29,461 bases of DNA from an uncultured Clostridia bacterium (GTDB taxonomy: Bacteria; Bacillota; Clostridia; Christensenellales; UBA1242): the NCBI GenBank assembly GCA_944372595.1, contig CALVZT010000001.1, forward strand, positions 1-29,461. Reading direction: 5' to 3'. Below the pieces are notes generated by a model. The model was not told the DNA's origin. It saw nothing but the letters and a program-made list of their open reading frames with translations, and searched no databases. The stretch's first letter is position 1. Each line of letters opens with the position of its first letter. The position numbers were made by a program, and so were the translations under genes. This document shows positions 11,196 through 23,794 of this stretch, piece by piece.

Positions 11196-12461
11196 ATGCC
11201 AAAAGACAATAAATTAGTATGTTCATTTTGTGGCAAAACTCAATCAGAGGTCAAAAGACTAATTGCAAGTCCAGACGGAGAAAGTTTTATATGCGACGAA
11301 TGTATAAATATTTGCACAGAAATAATTAAGGAAGATAAATATACAAAAACTCAAAACAAAATTGACCTCCCTCTTCCCCATCAAATCAAGGAAATGCTTG
11401 ATCAATATATTATAGGGCAAGAAGAAGCAAAAAAAGTTTTGTCCGTTGCGGTATATAATCATTATAAACGAATTAATTATAATGCAGATATTAAAAAGAC
11501 AAAACCAACCGAACAACCAATAGAACTTGAAAAAAGTAACGTATTAATGATAGGCCCAACTGGTAGTGGTAAGACATTACTTGCAAAAACACTTGCCAAA
11601 ATTTTAAAAGTGCCTTTTGCAAGTTGCGATGCAACTACTCTAACAGAGGCAGGCTATGTTGGAGATGATGTTGAGAACATTCTTCTAAAATTAATTCAAG
11701 CTGCTGATTATGATATTGAAAAGGCTCAACGTGGTATAATCTATATCGACGAGATTGATAAAATTTCGAGAAAAAGTGAAAATCGCTCTATTACAAGAGA
11801 CGTATCCGGCGAAGGTGTTCAACAGGCATTATTAAAAATACTTGAAAGCACAGTAGCAAGCGTTCCTCCACAAGGTGGTAGAAAACATCCACAACAAGAA
11901 ATGATAGCAATTGACACAACAAATATACTCTTTATTTGTGGTGGTGCCTTTGTTGGACTTGAAAAAATTATTAATAAGCGCATAACTGATGCATCATTAG
12001 GATTTGGAGCAGGTATCAAGTCATCAAAAGATGATGTTGAAAATTATGAATTAATTAAACAAATTACTCCTCAGGACTTAATCAAATTTGGCCTTATACC
12101 AGAATTTGTTGGAAGGCTACCAATTGTTGTTGGACTTCACGACCTAACCGAAGACGCATTAAAAATAATTTTAACTACTCCAAAAAATTCAATTACCAAA
12201 CAATATCAAAAAATGTTTGATATGGATGGAATCAAATTATCATTTGACGAAGGTGCAATTGATGCCGTTGCAAAAAAAGCAATGAAACTCAAAACTGGCG
12301 CAAGAGGATTAAGAACGATATTAGAAGAATCAATGTTATCATTAATGTACACTGCTCCTGCCGACAAATCAATTGATAGCATTACTATAAATGAAGACTT
12401 TATCACAAAAACTGCCGAACCAATTATTCACAGAAAAAAATCAGAAGAAGAGAGTGCTTAA
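11196..12461 (+). CDS. clpX: ATP-dependent Clp protease ATP-binding subunit ClpX
   Basis: C4 zinc finger CSFC...CDEC, Walker [44 protein letters not shown] loop and GARGLR. Confidence 0.99.
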
Positions 12462-16776: not shown

Positions 16777-19497
16777 TTAATTCGACTTTTTTATAGCATC
16801 TACTGGTCGCATTCGACTAATCTTAATTGTCGGTATTATTGTAGCAATAATTGTGACCACAAGACAAGCAATTAATATAGCAAAAATTGGTTGAATCCCC
16901 ACACTTAATAAAGAAATTTTATCAATAACGTCAGATTGGAGGTATGTTTTAAAATTTGAGGATAACAACGAATTAACTCCCCAAATTCCAAGGAACATAA
17001 GTCCCCAAGATACTATCGTTGTGATTGCCCCAACTATTAAAGCTTCAATTAAAAATATTTTTGACACATCTGTGCCTTTGGCTCCAATTGCACGCAAAAT
17101 ACCAATTTCTTTCTTTTTATTTATAACACTAAGAGAAACAAAATTAAATAACAGTATCGTAGAAAAAATTCCTAAAATCAAAGCAACCCATTGAAATATT
17201 ATGGAAAATATTGCAAATATTTGACTTACCATATATAACGTATCGGATATTTCCGATTCATGATAAAGATAATTATCGTTTGCTGACTCTAATAATTTTT
17301 CAATTTCATACACATTTTCGGGGGTATCAACGTACACACCTTTTCTTGCAAAGTTGTTAATATTTAATTCATTAACTTTCTCATCGCTTAATATTCCGCC
17401 CAAAGACAACGAATAAATATCAGGCACTTCATATAAGGCAACAATATGGTAAGTCTCTACTTCGTATGCCACATTATCAACCGAAAACATTTTAAATGTA
17501 CCGATATCTATACTTTTAGGTTCAAAACCTTCAAAGTTATTGTTACTTGCAATATTTGTATTAAATATTTTGTTATACTCACTAGTCGATATTATAATAT
17601 TGTTTTTGTCTTGATTAACTAAATTAACATAATCATTGCTACTAAATTTTATATCAATATTATCCAAAGTGAGCAAATATATATAACTTGCTTTGAACAT
17701 ATATGCAGAAGAGGTCATACTTTTGGGAAAATCTTGTTCGTCAGAACTTTTTATCTTATAACGAGTCATATATGCACCCAAATTCGAAGAAGCAATATCA
17801 TTAACAATATCTTTGTTATATGTGTACATTATTGATAAAAAATTCGAAACTTCACTTGCAAATTGATTATAATCTTTGTGCCCCGTAAATTGCGAACTAT
17901 CCGCATTATATGTATTAATTAAATCTTGATATTTGGTTAAATAGTCTGTACCAATCACGGCAACTATGGGTACTGTTGTACCAAAATTATCAATAAGGTT
18001 GTATTTACCATCTCTATCAATTGCACTATAAATTTCTTCGGCACTTATTGTAGTAAGAGAAGCCTTGGCTCTTACAAAACACTCGATAAAGTAATCGGTA
18101 ACAATTACTCCATTGTTTGCATTGTCTAAATTACCAGATATAACATTTAAGTTGTCTTGTTTAAAATATTTTTTTAAATTATCTTCATTTGTAACAAGTA
18201 AACCACTAGTGTTTGATAAATACACAGAATCAACACTCTTTCCCATCAATGACATTATCATATTAATTATGTTAGAAGAAGAATTGTTAGAAAAAACCAA
18301 ATCAACACCATAATAATCATCGATATTATTAACTTCACCAAATACAGTGCGATATGTTTCATCATTTAAATTATTTTCAACATTGTAATTTAATGTTTCA
18401 TATTCATAATTATACTCACCTTGTTTGAGTATAATCGTATCAATATTATTTTTCTTAAAACTATTTGCCGAAGCGGACACAATATCATAGCCCGCAAATG
18501 TTTGACTTAGCCCAAACAAAGTCAATGCAATAACTGTTAAAAATATTGTTACTATCAATCTAAATTTTTTATGTGCAAAATTAGACACACCTATTTGAGT
18601 TGCAAATTTATTTGGAAGTCGCGATTTTATTAGTTTGAACTCTGATTTGTTTTTATTAATTACTTTTGTAGTTTTTTTGTATTCACTCTTTGCTAATTTT
18701 AACTTCGCGTTTTTATTATTGCTTATTGTATCATTTATTTTAGCTATTTGAGAAGCATTAAGGGGCTTGTTATATGGTATTGTGATTTCATCATCGTTTA
18801 CTTGAAATTCGATATTAGTATCATTTATTTTTGATACATCATTTATTACCTGTCCATCGTGTAATTCAATAATTCTATCTGCATATTTTTCAGCAGAATC
18901 TTTATCGTGAGAAACAATAATTATTAATTTCTCCTTTGCAAGATTTCTAAGTATATCAAATATTTGTTCAGATGTTTTTGAATCCAAGTTTCCAGTTGGT
19001 TCATCTGCAAGTATGATATCTGGATTTTTAACCAATGCTCTTGCAATAGCAACTCTTTGTTTTTGCCCACCACTTAGTTCATTCGGTTTTCTCTTTTCTA
19101 ATCCGTCAAGTCCAACTTGTTGCAAAATGTTTTCCACATCATTTTTGTTAACTTTTTTATTTTGCAATTTCAAAGCAAGCGAAACATTATCATATACAGA
19201 AAAATTATCCATAACATTGTATTCTTGAAATATAAATCCAAGATAAGTGTTTCTATAAGAATCATAGTCTTTGTATGAAAAATTTTTACTTGATTTATTG
19301 CGAATAATTATTTCACCTTTATCGGGAGCATCAAGTCCGCCAATAACATTCAAAAAGGTTGATTTACCACTACCACTTTTGCCCAACACAAAAACAAGTC
19401 CTTTATCTGGGAACTTAATATTCAAACCTTTAAGTGCCACACAGGAAGAACCTTTTTTGCTTTTATATGATTTATACAAATCCTTAACTTCTAGCAT
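16777..19497 (-). CDS. MacB-like ABC transporter, fused ATP-binding domain and FtsX-type permease
   Basis: Walker A GKSGSGKST, LSGGQKQR, Walker B ILADEPTGNLD and SHD H-loop. One TM near aa 315, a large extracytoplasmic domain, then three C-terminal TMs with KKKEIGILRAIGA and PVDAIK. Confidence 0.95.
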   Translation of the reverse strand: MLEVKDLYKSYKSKKGSSCVALKGLNIKFPDKGLVFVLGKSGSGKSTFLNVIGGLDAPDKGEIIIRNKSSKNFSYKDYDSYRNTYLGFIFQEYNVMDNFSVYDNVSLALKLQNKKVNKNDVENILQQVGLDGLEKRKPNELSGGQKQRVAIARALVKNPDIILADEPTGNLDSKTSEQIFDILRNLAKEKLIIIVSHDKDSAEKYADRIIELHDGQVINDVSKINDTNIEFQVNDDEITIPYNKPLNASQIAKINDTISNNKNAKLKLAKSEYKKTTKVINKNKSEFKLIKSRLPNKFATQIGVSNFAHKKFRLIVTIFLTVIALTLFGLSQTFAGYDIVSASANSFKKNNIDTIILKQGEYNYEYETLNYNVENNLNDETYRTVFGEVNNIDDYYGVDLVFSNNSSSNIINMIMSLMGKSVDSVYLSNTSGLLVTNEDNLKKYFKQDNLNVISGNLDNANNGVIVTDYFIECFVRAKASLTTISAEEIYSAIDRDGKYNLIDNFGTTVPIVAVIGTDYLTKYQDLINTYNADSSQFTGHKDYNQFASEVSNFLSIMYTYNKDIVNDIASSNLGAYMTRYKIKSSDEQDFPKSMTSSAYMFKASYIYLLTLDNIDIKFSSNDYVNLVNQDKNNIIISTSEYNKIFNTNIASNNNFEGFEPKSIDIGTFKMFSVDNVAYEVETYHIVALYEVPDIYSLSLGGILSDEKVNELNINNFARKGVYVDTPENVYEIEKLLESANDNYLYHESEISDTLYMVSQIFAIFSIIFQWVALILGIFSTILLFNFVSLSVINKKKEIGILRAIGAKGTDVSKIFLIEALIVGAITTIVSWGLMFLGIWGVNSLLSSNFKTYLQSDVIDKISLLSVGIQPIFAILIACLVVTIIATIIPTIKISRMRPVDAIKKSN

Positions 19498-19635: not shown

Positions 19636-20160
19636 CTAAATCAAATTTTTAATTTTTTTATTGTTTATGTAATTTACTATTACGAATATTAATGCACTAA
19701 TTAATGTAATTAACTCGATCAGTGCATTAATATATCCAGCATAAAGAATATTATAAATTATATTCATAATAGCCGCTCCAATAACAAAATATCTTAATCT
19801 TACTCCCCTTTCAAGACAAAATCCATGATTATATATAAGTCCAGCCATCATAGATAACAAAGTTATTGGTCCTATCCATACTATACCCAAAGTCACAATA
19901 ATTGCCAACTGAAAAAACAAATACAACCATATAGAATATTGCATTTTTTTATTTTCGAACAAAACTATTGTAAATGACCTAATAGAAGCAAACAACACTG
20001 CAATTCCACCCGCTATTGCTCCTAAAAGAAAATTACTAATAGAATACAAAATATTAGATGGAAATTGAAGTAGCATAATTATTTTTTTGTTTTTGCATTG
20101 CATACTAATAACAGCTAATATTAATGCAATTGCCGATATACATTGTGTTAAATAAAACAT
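19636..20160 (-). CDS. YgjV-family inner membrane protein
   Basis: Pattern Q.I..IALILAVISMQCKNKKIIMLLQ...LLGAIAGG...IR, then a second half ..LR....I.YNI...Y; 5-6 TMs. Family recognised by eye. Confidence 0.8.
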   Translation of the reverse strand: MFYLTQCISAIALILAVISMQCKNKKIIMLLQFPSNILYSISNFLLGAIAGGIAVLFASIRSFTIVLFENKKMQYSIWLYLFFQLAIIVTLGIVWIGPITLLSMMAGLIYNHGFCLERGVRLRYFVIGAAIMNIIYNILYAGYINALIELITLISALIFVIVNYINNKKIKNLI

Positions 20161-20162
20161 AC

Positions 20163-21374
20163 TTACCTTAAAAACTTTTTACTGATTAATTCACTAATTG
20201 ATTTATAATCTTTATCAAGACCATATTTTACAATACCGATATTAGGCACTTCTTCATCAATGTAAATGTACAAAATCATATCACACAAAGATTTAATCTT
20301 TGTTTTACTATCAAAAAGACTCACAAGTAAATAAAAATTATTAAAAAAATAATTTTTAAAATAATTATTCCACCTATCAATCGTAATTGTGTTTATGTAC
20401 TTTTCTGCAATTATTCTACTGTTAACATTTACAGCATAATCATTACCAACGTATGCAAGAATTAACAATGGTATAACAAGTATCGAATAATCATTTGTTA
20501 CCATAATATTATCCAACAAATTATTAAGTACCGAAGATTCTATACTATAACCGCTAACATCATAATGTAAATAATTAATTTCTTTACATTTAGTGTATAA
20601 TTTTTCAAATGCTTTAACTTCTCCAACAATGTCCGCGAGTTTAATATATTTATCAGCATAATTTTTATAATCTTTCAAAAAATAACTAAAAATTAATTTT
20701 TGTCCATTTGTAAAATTATTGGAAATAGCAGGTACAATAACACTAATATTTTTATCTAACACATCGTTGAATTTTTCAACAACTAACATACATAAAAGTT
20801 GCATTACAACGATGATTTTTCTCACATCACTCTCAATAATATCAATATAAATTTGACTAAGAGGCAACAATTCTTGTGTATGAAGACTTGTTGCAAAATT
20901 TATGTATGATGTAACAAAGTCTTTATAATCTTTTGCAAAAACAGATTGACAACATACTTTAAGAAAGTATAAAAATTCTTTTTGTGATACCTTTTTGTTA
21001 ATATCCAAAAATTTTATTGCTTGAATAAATTCAACTAATCTTGTTAAATCTTTATATTCTTGCGAAGTAATAAGTCCCAAATCGCATGAAGAATTTAATA
21101 AATATATACCATTCAAAAAAGACACACTGGCAGGTTCAAAAATAATATAAAATCTAAGAATGTTATAATTGCCTAATTGCTTTAAGGTATTATGGAGTCT
21201 TGTCATAGTTTTGGTGTATAAAAATTCAAGTGCAGTATTATAAAATTCTGCTTTGCAAAAATTTGTAATCTTGTCTTTATCTATATCCCTAATACCAACA
21301 AAAGACGTTGAGTTAAAAACGTCCAAGTCAAAATTATCGTCAAGTTCAAGACTTTTTGGAACAGACCAAATCAT
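20163..21374 (-). CDS. Hypothetical all-helical protein; N-terminal region resembles a DUF4145/HEPN-like fold without an Rx4-6H motif
   Basis: 403 aa, perfect GAGGAGGT SD, ATGA overlap with the upstream DAC-like gene. The pattern F...FY..A..FLY.KTM..L...L..LG...L....DLGLIT...Y..L fits the helix order of HEPN-like families. The fold call is inference. Confidence 0.5.
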   Translation of the reverse strand: MIWSVPKSLELDDNFDLDVFNSTSFVGIRDIDKDKITNFCKAEFYNTALEFLYTKTMTRLHNTLKQLGNYNILRFYIIFEPASVSFLNGIYLLNSSCDLGLITSQEYKDLTRLVEFIQAIKFLDINKKVSQKEFLYFLKVCCQSVFAKDYKDFVTSYINFATSLHTQELLPLSQIYIDIIESDVRKIIVVMQLLCMLVVEKFNDVLDKNISVIVPAISNNFTNGQKLIFSYFLKDYKNYADKYIKLADIVGEVKAFEKLYTKCKEINYLHYDVSGYSIESSVLNNLLDNIMVTNDYSILVIPLLILAYVGNDYAVNVNSRIIAEKYINTITIDRWNNYFKNYFFNNFYLLVSLFDSKTKIKSLCDMILYIYIDEEVPNIGIVKYGLDKDYKSISELISKKFLR

Positions 21375-22405
21375 CTTTTTACCTCCTCATAGAAGACCTC
21401 ACCTTCTTGAGATTGAAAATATACTCCAATAATTTTTTTCTTTTTAGAGTTAAGTATTGTATAAGCGGCGCGTTTTCTCGCCCCACCGAGTATTTTTTTT
21501 GATACCGATGCCGTTGTTTCAACAAAAACATTATAAGCAAGAATTCTTCCTGCATTATCAATTATCGTAATTCCATCATAGTTAAGCATATCAATAAATA
21601 GACCAGCAATAGTCGAAAGTTGTGCCTCAGAATAAACCTTAGCTTGCAAATAACTTTTTGAAAAATCGATAGGTTCTCTTAACCAAATACCATCTGAAAA
21701 TATACCCGTATCCATATAATCTTTATCAACGATTACACAAATTGTACCATGTATATCTTTAAATGCTCTTTTTAAAATATTTTCTTGTAAAATTTTTATT
21801 TCATTTAATTTTTTCTTAGTAGTTTTTAATTTTTGCAGACTCGCCGAAACAAATCTTTTGATAACTGTATCAACATCAACAATTATATCGTCGCTTAAAG
21901 TAAAGTTTATTTGTAGTTCTCTTCCCTTAATCCCTTTTAGTTTTATTGCATAAGAACTTACAGCATCAATAAAAATCATTGATATTTTGTTATCAAAAAC
22001 AATCTCTTCATCAAACAACAATTGAGACAAATCTTTCTCTTTGATACTATTCATTGCTTTGCAAATGCCGTATGTAAATTGTGCATCTTTGTAAGAAATA
22101 TAAACAATCCAATCATTATTACAAAAATTAGCAAGACTTTTAACCCTTGGCTCAAAAGAACTCTCATCATTATCCACAAACAAATCAAGTTTGTAAGCAT
22201 TTGGTACGGCTTTTATTATTGAATCAATATCACTACATATTAAAATTGATGGACGAACTTTTGTACCTTCTTCTTCGTAATTACAAAATTTATAGAAAAA
22301 ACTATACAAGCGCACCAAAAATTTTTCTGGTAGCGTAGGAAATTCCAAACTAACAAAATTAACAACCGAATCTTTTGCATCAGAATAAAATACTTTTTCT
22401 ACCAT
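21371..22405 (-). CDS. Atypical soluble diadenylate-cyclase-like protein (C-terminal DisA_N/DAC domain, N-terminal putative sensor domain)
   Basis: C-terminal IHGTICVIVD...MLNYDGITIIDNAGRILAYNVF...GGARKRAA aligns with the DAC motifs HGALIV / DGA / G(T/A)RHRAA. No TM (so not CdaA) and no HhH tail (so not DisA). GGAG SD. Confidence 0.8.
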   Translation of the reverse strand: MVEKVFYSDAKDSVVNFVSLEFPTLPEKFLVRLYSFFYKFCNYEEEGTKVRPSILICSDIDSIIKAVPNAYKLDLFVDNDESSFEPRVKSLANFCNNDWIVYISYKDAQFTYGICKAMNSIKEKDLSQLLFDEEIVFDNKISMIFIDAVSSYAIKLKGIKGRELQINFTLSDDIIVDVDTVIKRFVSASLQKLKTTKKKLNEIKILQENILKRAFKDIHGTICVIVDKDYMDTGIFSDGIWLREPIDFSKSYLQAKVYSEAQLSTIAGLFIDMLNYDGITIIDNAGRILAYNVFVETTASVSKKILGGARKRAAYTILNSKKKKIIGVYFQSQEGEVFYEEVKR

Positions 22406-22423
22406 TACTTCTCCATAATAAAT

Positions 22424-22957
22424 TTAATATTTTTTTTCAAACAAATATCCTATGTCTTTTTTTTGATCACCATTTATAAATTCGTTAGGTACTTTAGTCT
22501 CTAATTTTTTTATGAGTTTGTAACCACATTTTGTTGCAAATTTTACAATATTCATATTCAATGCAATATCTTTATCTTCAATAATAATAAGATATCTAGT
22601 AATAAATCTAAAAATTCCATTTAATAATTCTTTTAAATCCATATTATTGTCAATACCCCTTGTCAATACAAGATGAGCAAGACACAAATCATAGCCTTTT
22701 GTAATATGTTGCTTTCGAATATCCAACTTAACTAAGTTATATTTAACAGTTTTGATAGAATCCGCTATTAATTTAATTCTCTCAAAGTTATATATTGGAT
22801 ACATAGCGTCAATTTTTGCATATCCAAAGTAATTACCTAACATATACAAACTAGTTCTTCCCGTTCCGATATCGGCAATATAACTAATGTTATTGTCTTT
22901 TATGATATCAAAAAATGTTTTCATTATATATGTATGCTCTGCCCTTGGATAATACAT
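22424..22957 (-). CDS. Class I SAM-dependent methyltransferase-like protein
   Basis: Motif I IADIGTGRTSL, acidic LVKLDI and YDLCLAHLVL. Start is the ATG at 22957 (or GTG at 22960) after GGAGG, overlapping the SDR stop. Confidence 0.68.
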   Translation of the reverse strand: MYYPRAEHTYIMKTFFDIIKDNNISYIADIGTGRTSLYMLGNYFGYAKIDAMYPIYNFERIKLIADSIKTVKYNLVKLDIRKQHITKGYDLCLAHLVLTRGIDNNMDLKELLNGIFRFITRYLIIIEDKDIALNMNIVKFATKCGYKLIKKLETKVPNEFINGDQKKDIGYLFEKKY

Positions 22958-23745
22958 CACTTTCCTCCCATAGTTTTATATATAACTTTATGAAGCATAT
23001 TATATGGTAAAAATCTCATAATGAAATGCAATAATTTAAATTTAAATCCAATTATATAATAAGGCTTAATTTTTTTCTTATTTATTAACCTAAATATCTT
23101 TTTGCCTACTTTTTCAACACTTGCACGCTTATCATTTTTGCTATCGATTTTTTTTGCAGCATTTTCAATTTTTGTTCCATATCTTTCATTTGTATCAAAG
23201 ACTTTAACTCTATTTTGAGTAAAATTAGTTTTTATTTCAGATGGACAAATAGCACATACTCTAACGCCAAAATTTCTACACTCCATGTCTAATGAATAAC
23301 TCATTAAATTAAGTGCCGATTTCGAGGCGCAATAGATACCTCTAAACGGAACTGGATAAAAAGCACACACCGAGCTAATATTTATAATTTTGCCACCTTT
23401 GTTGATAATAGGTAAAAATTTTTGAACAAGTGAAACAACAGCAAAAAAGTTAACTTCAAACAAATTTTTAATGTTATGTAAAGGCAATAATTCTGTTGCT
23501 CCGGACAATCCAAAGCCAGCATTATTTATCAATATATCAATATGACTATATTTTTGCTTTATTTGTTCACAAACAACAACAATGTTTTCTTCATTGCTAA
23601 GATCACAAGCAAAATTATCAACATTTTGAATATCACAAGAATGTCTTGCAATATTTATCACTTTATCGCCCTGAGCAATAAAAGATTTACATAAATTGTA
23701 TCCTACTCCACTACTACCACCAGTAACAACAACAATTTTGCTCAT
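22957..23745 (-). CDS. Classical short-chain dehydrogenase/reductase (SDR)
   Basis: TGGSSGVG, ILINNAGFG, NISS and YCASK (YxxxK). Confidence 0.95.
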   Translation of the reverse strand: MSKIVVVTGGSSGVGYNLCKSFIAQGDKVINIARHSCDIQNVDNFACDLSNEENIVVVCEQIKQKYSHIDILINNAGFGLSGATELLPLHNIKNLFEVNFFAVVSLVQKFLPIINKGGKIINISSVCAFYPVPFRGIYCASKSALNLMSYSLDMECRNFGVRVCAICPSEIKTNFTQNRVKVFDTNERYGTKIENAAKKIDSKNDKRASVEKVGKKIFRLINKKKIKPYYIIGFKFKLLHFIMRFLPYNMLHKVIYKTMGGK

Positions 23746-23766: not shown

Positions 23767-23794
23767 ATTATAACATTAAAAAAGAAAAAGTAAA
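23767..23794 (-). promoter_or_regulatory. Extended -10 sigmaA promoter of the five-gene SDR...YgjV unit
   Basis: Minus-strand TTTACT-N16-TATAAT with TGtTATAAT; AGGTG SD before the SDR ATG. Confidence 0.6.

Follow-up and report, generated by a model that had tools for sequence, protein, structure and literature searches.

Two overlapping genes on the minus strand of the window, as we call the whole stretch of 29,461 nucleotides (nt) from an uncultured Clostridia bacterium that was analysed here, encode a protein of 344 amino acids (aa) resembling diadenylate cyclases (DACs) and a helical protein of 403 aa, to which we refer in the following as the DAC-like enzyme and its partner. These two genes are a real, ancient and evolutionarily conserved module: distant pairs, only 15–24% identical in sequence, occur in other phyla with the same gene order and overlap. 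We give a probability of about 0.55 to the reading that the pair is a conserved two-gene nucleotide-signalling module, built from a divergent DAC and a helical partner, which probably originated in defence and was vertically fixed in this lineage. An original prediction, made from the letters of the window, had proposed an uncharacterised module of a sensor cyclase and a helical protein, and the recurrence of the pairing across phyla bears this out.

Conservation of the gene pair

The two reading frames share the nucleotides ATGA, exactly as the original prediction had read them on the minus strand: the ATG of the partner gene lies at 21374–21372 and the TGA stop codon of the DAC-like gene at 21373–21371. 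The Shine-Dalgarno sequence that had been noted inside the upstream gene is likewise present (GAGGAGGT at 21388–21381), 6 nt from the ATG of the partner. We scored the pairing in 80 related loci from GTDB genomes, four of which end too early, leaving 76 that are scorable for the partner. It is present in 32 of these, directly downstream of the enzyme in every case (32/32) and with an overlap of 4 nt or 1 nt. Because this overlap recurs in all 32 partner-bearing loci as well as in the distant pairs, the translational coupling is conserved and not a matter of chance, and the arrangement from which co-expression had been suggested at the single locus recurs across its relatives.

The distant pairs include a metagenome contig (L100), on which a 342-aa enzyme (hhalign probability of 99.2% to the enzyme family) overlaps a 437-aa partner (P0133) by 4 nt, and two plasmid-borne pairs of overlapping genes, one from Vibrio (339 and 441 aa) and one from Agrobacterium (352 and 443 aa; hhalign E=8e-95 for the partner). 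In Bacillus genomes, the partner is preceded, at the end of a contig, by a C-terminal fragment of the enzyme. When the word index was searched a second time with a broader alignment, only the close clade came up. Furthermore, the AlphaFold DB protein A0A1M7IXE7 (564 aa) matches the models of both proteins, ranking second in the search with the enzyme and eighth in that with the partner, which suggests a natural enzyme–partner fusion. A complex prediction for the two window proteins gave a score of 0.00, which counts neither as support nor as counter-evidence.

Several variants of the locus were observed besides. In both Bacillus assemblies (L101:115-486 and L102:5-376), the enzyme is cut to its last 108–124 codons and the contig ends 50–160 nt upstream; this coincidence of truncation and contig end suggests a repeat or insertion element at the spot. 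Two metagenomic proteins, P0233 (280 aa) and P0209 (355 aa), join the N-terminal domain or the middle part of the enzyme to the C-terminal part of the partner and look like deletion-fusion remnants of the pair. On the plasmid of Vibrio sp. dhg, a third gene (L106:3225-3839) shares 1 nt with the 3' end of the partner gene; its 204-aa product has no match in Pfam or PADLOC, and the Vibrio module may include it as an additional component. Finally, in a partner-less subclade (L059:7047-7358 and six further loci), a conserved 103-aa open reading frame (ORF) overlaps the enzyme gene or follows it at a distance of 1–8 nt; it belongs to no Pfam family and could be an alternative small partner.

A predicted DAC fold in an architecture of its own

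The DAC-like protein has 679 homologues at 42–65% identity, and its relatives are spread over 214 GTDB species. Its AlphaFold model (pLDDT 87) consists of two domains. The C-terminal one (residues 180–344) was compared with known structures by VIA-align and matches DisA (3c1y) with a Z-score of 11.6, DacM with 10.6, 2fb5 with 10.4, CdaM with 9.9 and CdaA with 9.8, while the next matches after the DAC structures reach only 4.2; likewise, Foldseek against the PDB matches the model to DAC with a probability of 1.00 and an E-value of about 7e-4. By sequence, the likeness to DACs that had been noted from the window is weak. The Pfam family PF02457 matches the protein at E=5e-4 with 20 bits, under its gathering cut-off of 27 bits, and is met at E<=1 in 15 of 32 relatives, with a best E-value of about 5e-4. 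A profile search of the enzyme family against PDB sequences found nothing, and an hhalign comparison of the family with CdaA of related genomes returned the expected register at a probability of 1%, that is, with no statistical support. The DAC assignment hence draws on structure together with the weak Pfam match, and the structural comparison (Z 9.8–11.6) makes it firm: the modelled protein carries a true, very divergent DAC fold.

Two motifs mark this domain, D277-G278-I279 and G308-A309-R310-K311-R312, which in the register of CdaA correspond to DGA and GTRHR (Ala to Ile, Thr to Ala and His to Lys). D277-G278 and the stretch G307-G308-A309-R310-x-R312-A313 are invariant in the enzyme family, including Vibrio and Agrobacterium relatives of 22% identity, and the position of the RHR histidine varies between K, T, S and R. 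According to the PanDA preprint (10.64898/2026.08.10.743972), conservation across all DACs is limited to four residues, Asp and Gly of DGA together with Gly and the first Arg of GTRHR. All four (D277, G278, G308 and R310) are kept in the DAC-like protein, so that its altered DGA and RHR motifs are no argument for a dead enzyme.

The N-terminal α/β domain (residues 1–175) has invariant residues of its own, namely Y43, E45 and E46 (a Y-x-E-E motif), P52, K89, W99 and G113, which are also kept in the 22%-identical relatives from Vibrio and Agrobacterium. VIA-align against the PDB gave no match above Z 4.2 for this domain, and neither the protein nor its family matches the Pfam families DACNG, DACNH (PF21750) or DACNV; for DACNG (PF21752), the search extended to E<=0.1 for the window protein and to E<=1 for 32 relatives. 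DAC proteins with N-terminal sensor domains in the AlphaFold DB align along the entire DAC-like protein. Its neighbours in a protein language model include DACNH-DAC clusters of about 346 aa, which we record as a lead only. As had been stated from the sequence, the enzyme is unlike CdaA, DisA and CdaS; it combines the DAC fold with a different architecture.

An all-helical partner

The partner is modelled as an all-helical protein (pLDDT 88.5) and has no match in Pfam, NCBIfam or PADLOC. Its family comprises 165 clusters at 50% identity in a profile search of 1.84 billion representatives, with members mostly of 430–445 aa. Pfam searches of 54 partner relatives at E<=1 gave only noise, with no HEPN family and no DACNG among the matches; the profile of the partner family likewise found only noise among PDB sequences, and Foldseek of the model against the PDB returned nothing significant.

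The original prediction had called the partner HEPN-like, and as regards its N-terminal helical bundle (residues 25–153), the structural comparison points the same way, at borderline scores. In VIA-align, eight of the nine top matches are HEPN proteins, with Z-scores of 7.4–8.4 (HEPN structures in the top ranks extend over Z 6–8.4 and cover 109–120 residues). They include HepT toxins, AF_0298, HI0074 and the HEPN domain of AbiA; named matches are 1wwp (Z 8.4), 5yep_B (8.1), 2hsb (8.0), 1jog, 8xdj, 8oz7 (AbiA HEPN) and 7ae2. Given that such scores are borderline for helical bundles, and with no match at the sequence level, we call this bundle HEPN-like and not HEPN.

One explanation of the pair would make the partner a HEPN ribonuclease effector that is switched on by a cyclic nucleotide, as in Csm6 or Csx1. 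The dominance of HEPN structures among the matches to residues 25–153 speaks for it. However, neither a conserved Rx4-6H motif nor a conserved Arg/His pair exists in this region across 54 family members, as the original prediction had already noted for the window copy; besides, a sensor domain resembling CARF or SAVED is lacking, the Z-scores of 6–8.4 are borderline, and no HEPN family of Pfam matches even at E=1. We regard this explanation as very improbable, and the analogy that had been drawn to CARF-HEPN and HEPN-MNT systems is not supported, for want of the HEPN catalytic motif. The identity of the partner as a HEPN ribonuclease was rejected on the same ground, the absence of a conserved Rx4-6H from the family.

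The conserved polar residues of the family (D248, E252, H270, E279, G310, N311 and W335) sit in the C-terminal helical domain, where most members also carry an H-x3-NNFYNEP motif. This motif is degenerate in the copies of the window's lineage; the window copy keeps H270 and E279 and has Gly in place of N275. The analysis recognised neither a catalytic motif nor a membrane segment in this protein.

Relatives in defence and mobile contexts

Outside the lineage, the relatives of both proteins are found in conspicuous company. In Agrobacterium, the pair and a type I cyclic-oligonucleotide-based anti-phage signalling system (CBASS) are arranged back to back; within the latter, PADLOC recognises a CD-NTase (E=9e-120) and a patatin effector (E=1e-154), and the Vibrio plasmid pair is found near a restriction-modification system and an IS3 element. 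PADLOC further places the partner homologue P0132 beside the Lamassu genes LmuA and LmuB, and the partner copy of G078 between a PDC-S35 candidate and a restriction endonuclease fragment. Moreover, the partner domain forms the C-terminal 400 residues of fusions with caspase (P0141, P0145, P0146 and P0150), metallophosphatase (calcineurin-like phosphoesterase; P0149) and Ser/Thr kinase (P0172 and P0243) domains. One caspase fusion (L099:2284-4407) adjoins a serine recombinase. We consider a defence origin of the module probable because its relatives reside on plasmids and beside CBASS, restriction-modification and Lamassu systems.

Small plasmids of Clostridium perfringens, Bacillus thuringiensis, Acinetobacter schindleri and Streptomyces (L112:3761-5179, L113:3770-5188, L114:3911-5311 and L115:3740-5191) carry members of the partner family that stand alone and measure about 470 aa. 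The copies of C. perfringens and A. schindleri sit among HicB, Phd/YefM, MazF, ImmA/IrrE and recombinase genes. It is possible that these stand-alone members are single-gene, abortive-infection-like proteins.

Such neighbours also recall toxin-antitoxin systems, and the helical partner could be a toxic effector under the restraint of the enzyme itself or of the nucleotide that the enzyme makes. The tight coupling of the two genes fits this idea, as do the stand-alone homologues among HicB, Phd/YefM and MazF on small plasmids and the frequent retention of the enzyme without its partner, which the loss of a toxin would allow; Panoptoo operates in this way. By contrast, partner homologues without a DAC-like neighbour are hard to square with an obligate antidote, and the partner shows no recognised catalytic motif or membrane segment. 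On balance, we find a toxin-antitoxin-like pair improbable.

A further alternative is that the pair is an active anti-phage system in this very genome, in which the partner would sense infection or, in a Panoptes-like manner, the loss of a decoy signal and would, together with the cyclase, bring about growth arrest or death. The relatives beside CBASS, Lamassu, restriction-modification and PDC-S35 genes are in its favour, and so is the swapping of the partner domain onto caspase, kinase and metallophosphatase domains, as is seen in modular immune proteins. It is also in line with the patchy distribution of the module (10 of the 24 family genomes, and the partner in one of 400 genomes sampled evenly from the phylum), with the faster evolution of the partner, about 2.7-fold relative to the enzyme at non-synonymous sites, and with the experimentally established role of DACs of other architectures in defence. 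Against it stand the core genes that surround related loci and the four PADLOC-scanned neighbours without a known defence gene; dN/dS ratios of 0.02–0.055, which are typical of core genes, and an unremarkable GC content; and the lack of a recognised effector gene. In addition, PADLOC-DB v2 has no match for either protein, for the partner family or for the distant DAC-like relatives, and 50,697 phage records contain no relative of the enzyme or of the partner. We therefore regard an active anti-phage role here as rather doubtful, and a defence function of the pair in this genome is unproven. The link to defence that had been proposed from the window thus applies to the relatives beside CBASS, restriction-modification and Lamassu systems; at the pair's own locus, PADLOC found no such system among the four neighbouring genes that were scanned.

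Inheritance of the module in the lineage

The close relatives come from gut and rumen metagenome-assembled genomes labelled Clostridia or Christensenellales, with sizes of about 0.8–1.3 Mb; the source genome of the window has 0.82 Mb and is 89.7% complete. In related loci, the neighbours are core genes that are syntenic over dozens of species, encoding a short-chain dehydrogenase (SDR), a uridine-kinase-like protein, GroEL, SepF, LspA and PheT, and the SDR gene is the conserved upstream neighbour in 32 of them. PADLOC found no known defence gene among the four neighbouring genes of the pair. Within the clade, the DAC-like gene is single-copy and vertically inherited, with conserved synteny. 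A comparison with a close relative (L108), at a dS of about 1.2, gives a ratio of non-synonymous to synonymous substitutions (dN/dS) of 0.022 for the DAC-like gene and of 0.055 for the partner gene. The partner evolves about 2.7 times faster at non-synonymous sites; both genes are clearly functional and under strong purifying selection. In this genome, the behaviour of the module is that of a fixed operon passed on vertically and not that of a mobile island of defence genes.

In a tree of 96 enzyme sequences, the partner-bearing ones fall into one derived clade (34 of 38 rows) and a small clade of three. A species of the same genus (G001) has no partner, and at least four gains or losses of it are needed on the enzyme tree. 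The root of this tree is unreliable, owing to three very long outgroup branches, and we inferred no ancestral state of the partner.

The distribution of canonical DACs in this lineage bears on a third alternative. PF02457 was found neither in the window's own genome nor in 23 of the 24 genomes of its family (G001–G024); the sole match in these 24 genomes comes from G010, which has 4% contamination, and lies on a short contig. PF02457 is present in 15 of the 16 other families of the order. To judge from these searches, the CdaA-type cyclase was lost in this family, whose genomes measure about 1 Mb. Ten of its 24 genomes contain the DAC-like gene, and 13 of the 24 show neither a canonical DAC nor a DAC-like protein. 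In the window's own genome, no enzyme with a DAC fold was found apart from the DAC-like protein.

It is accordingly conceivable that the DAC-like enzyme replaced CdaA in housekeeping, as the physiological cyclic-dinucleotide synthase of these bacteria, with the partner as a dispensable regulator comparable to CdaR or GlmM. Such a replacement would account for the missing PF02457 in the family and its presence in the other families, and for a DAC-like gene that is single-copy, syntenic, very strongly constrained and kept where the partner is lost; moreover, a 315-aa DHH/DHHA1 protein encoded in the genome could degrade the product. On the other hand, 14 of the 24 family genomes have no DAC-like match, and since 13 of these also have no canonical DAC, a DAC function is not essential for the family. 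Likewise, the usual targets of cyclic di-AMP (c-di-AMP) were not found in the window's own genome, and outside the lineage the relatives belong to the accessory genes of mobile elements. We hold a housekeeping replacement to be possible, though less probable than not.

Comparison with known systems

A role of DACs in anti-phage signalling is known from CBASS-DAC/DS-2 with cyclases of the 550–575-aa CdaG type (PMC13092281, PMC13069673), and in DS-2 the catalytic residues of the DAC are required for defence (PMC13092281, PMC13069673, 10.64898/2026.08.10.743927). Like CdaG/DS-2C, the DAC-like enzyme is a soluble multi-domain DAC with a putative N-terminal sensor domain and an association with CBASS, here in the Agrobacterium relative; a CBASS operon beside the pair was found in this relative only and not in the window's own genome. 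By contrast, DS-2C is a single protein of about 550–575 aa with DACNG, DACNH and DAC domains, whereas the enzyme described here has 344 aa, no DACNG or DACNH, and, going by the description of DS-2C, differs further in having a separate helical partner of 400–440 aa without a Pfam family. A CdaG example of DACNG was sought in 400 genomes of the phylum and none was found; the controls of this search gave no match either. The pair might be a split form of CdaG, an idea on which only A0A1M7IXE7, the AlphaFold DB protein matching both models, has a bearing.

The second established architecture, Panoptoo/PanDA, couples a minimal DAC to a 2TM-beta effector (10.64898/2026.08.10.743927; 10.64898/2026.08.10.743972). 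Like PanS and PanE, our pair is a two-gene operon of a DAC-fold enzyme and a fixed partner, with remodelled DAC motifs and a frequent location near CBASS. PanS, however, is a DAC alone of about 150 aa with a membrane β-barrel partner, whereas our enzyme carries a 175-aa N-terminal domain and its partner is soluble and all-helical.

With the housekeeping cyclases CdaA, DisA, CdaS and CdaM, the enzyme shares the catalytic fold and the invariant Asp-Gly and Gly...Arg residues. Unlike them, it has no transmembrane helices, helix-hairpin-helix tail or CdaS-type helices, reads DGI and RKR at the two motifs and scores below the Pfam threshold; neither the CdaR/GlmM context of housekeeping DACs nor known targets of c-di-AMP were found in the genome. 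The N-terminal bundle of the partner, in turn, appears at borderline Z-scores to resemble the HEPN superfamily (PMC3710099) in its four-helix up-down arrangement, its size and topology; the occurrence of relatives in conflict systems is a further parallel. It differs from this superfamily in that it has no Rx4-6H and no sequence-level match and in that a helical domain of 250 aa with a motif of its own comes after it. A DAC of 340 aa with a helical partner of 400–440 aa is not described in the literature that we searched, including the DS-2 and PanDA papers.

A candidate mechanism and what weighs against it

From the fold, the conserved residues, the conserved pairing, the genomic contexts and the selection, all of which are observations, we infer the enzymatic product, the physical interaction, the direction of regulation and the biological role in this organism as follows. 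The 344-aa protein would be a soluble enzyme with an N-terminal sensor-type domain and a divergent, catalytically equipped DAC domain, and would most likely join two nucleoside triphosphates to a cyclic dinucleotide, c-di-AMP or a variant of it. The 403-aa partner would be made in step with the enzyme through translational coupling. It may be a non-catalytic helical protein, most likely a sensing or regulatory subunit or a receptor of the signal, and not a ribonuclease; the version that we favour is that the helical protein modulates the activity or output of the enzyme, or reads it. In the reduced-genome gut Christensenellales lineage, which has lost CdaA, the module would have become a vertically inherited operon under strong purifying selection.

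Several observations weigh against this two-gene signalling module of probable defence origin. Some concern the bond between the two genes. The original prediction had pictured them as co-occurring, and deep overlapping pairs do recur, whereas 44 of the 76 scorable loci have no partner and unrelated genes follow the enzyme there. As the DAC-like gene stays where the partner is gone, the enzyme does not need the partner; nor does the partner need the enzyme, because its family also stands alone on small plasmids. That prediction had further set its proposal against a DAC-like gene of housekeeping character, and the gene is indeed single-copy and vertically inherited in the clade under very strong purifying selection.

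Other observations concern the proteins themselves. Since the RHR histidine is replaced and variable, the chemistry of the enzyme may differ from c-di-AMP synthesis. The Z-scores of about 8 obtained for the partner bundle are, according to a warning of VIA-align, within the chance range for helical bundles, and the window partner is without several near-invariant residues of its family, including W218 (98% conserved, here Ser), N275 and P293.

Finally, the expected circuitry is scarce in the window's own genome: the c-di-AMP riboswitch RF00379, CdAMP_rec (DarA-type), TrkA_C (RCK_C) and PgpH were not found, and there was no match to CD-NTase (SMODS). Of two patatin matches, one was scanned and showed only generic similarity to CBASS phospholipases. 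As the genome is incomplete, these negatives mean 'not found' and not 'absent'.

A bolder version of the favoured module holds that the partner belongs to an undescribed modular family of immune sensors or regulators, marked by the H-x3-NNFYNEP motif, that spans phyla and is deployed alone on plasmids, as a fusion with caspase, kinase or metallophosphatase effectors or together with a sensor-DAC that feeds CBASS-type effectors, and that the pair was domesticated here as the only cyclic-dinucleotide synthase after the loss of CdaA. We offer it as speculative and rather unlikely in full.

The locus and its neighbouring genes

The pair is part of a tight run of five genes, in the order SDR, 178-aa protein, DAC-like enzyme, partner and YgjV-type protein, with no overlap or gap exceeding 18 nt (Table 1). 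The SDR (262 aa) is recognised by Pfam adh_short at E=3e-43. A promoter-like site at 23794–23767 precedes its gene, and a search for terminators found none that is convincing inside the run. The YgjV-family gene begins 2 nt past the stop codon of the partner.

Table 1. Features of the pair and of its surroundings, in positions of the window
Feature	Position	Strand	Basis or remark
DAC-like gene, 344 aa, stop included	21371..22405	-	ORF call
N-terminal α/β domain, residues 1–175	21881..22405	-	invariant residues, model
DAC-fold domain, residues about 180–344	21374..21868	-	structure comparison
All-helical partner gene, 403 aa	20163..21374	-	ORF call
HEPN-like helical bundle, partner residues 25–153	20916..21302	-	VIA-align
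Partner C-terminal helical domain, residues about 160–403	20166..20897	-	conservation table
ATGA start/stop overlap of the DAC-like and partner genes	21371..21374	-	read from sequence
Shine-Dalgarno GAGGAGGT of the partner gene, within the DAC-like gene	21381..21388	-	read from sequence; 6 nt 5' of ATG
GGAG ribosome-binding site of the DAC-like gene	22411..22414	-	read from sequence
SDR (262 aa) and 178-aa protein, both upstream, same packed unit	22424..23745	-	ORF calls
178-aa gene, between SDR and DAC-like gene	22424-22960	-	without known family
YgjV-family membrane protein, 174 aa, downstream	19636..20160	-	Pfam Imp-YgjV E=4e-20

The 178-aa upstream protein has no match in Pfam, NCBIfam or PADLOC. 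Among the nearest relatives, its gene is kept 5' of the DAC-like one, as seen from a tblastn match in L004; L109 has a 180-aa ORF, a putative counterpart, in the corresponding position. Directly 3' of the operon, the minus strand encodes a 906-aa fused ABC ATPase and FtsX-type permease (16777-19497; MacB-like), whose PADLOC match 'mad3' reflects generic similarity among ABC ATPases.

The original prediction had also taken a low GC content of the partner gene as a hint of foreign origin. The content is indeed low, at 25.1%, which is 1.5 standard deviations under the mean of the window genes (30.2%, standard deviation 3.4); the ORF at 11196–12461, which we assumed without a domain search to be the clpX of the comparison made then, has 33.4%. 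However, four other genes of the window have 26% or less, so that the partner is no outlier and its composition gives no sign of foreign origin.

Implications

DAC enzymes were shown to act in phage defence only in 2025–2026 and in two architectures, DS-2C in CBASS and the minimal PanS with its membrane effector; the pair described here would be a third. It is a candidate for a new nucleotide-signalling module that extends over Bacillota, Actinomycetota and Pseudomonadota, and one that Pfam-based screens would miss, because the DAC scores below the threshold and the partner belongs to no family. As the partner domain has been recombined with caspase, kinase and phosphoesterase domains, its role as a sensor or as an effector is directly testable. 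For the organism, the pair would represent a natural case of a defence-type module that became a fixed part of the core genome in a symbiont-like bacterium of about 1 Mb, in which the canonical c-di-AMP synthase is lost and the usual c-di-AMP targets that were sought were not found; it thereby bears on the question why some Firmicutes depend on c-di-AMP and others do without it.

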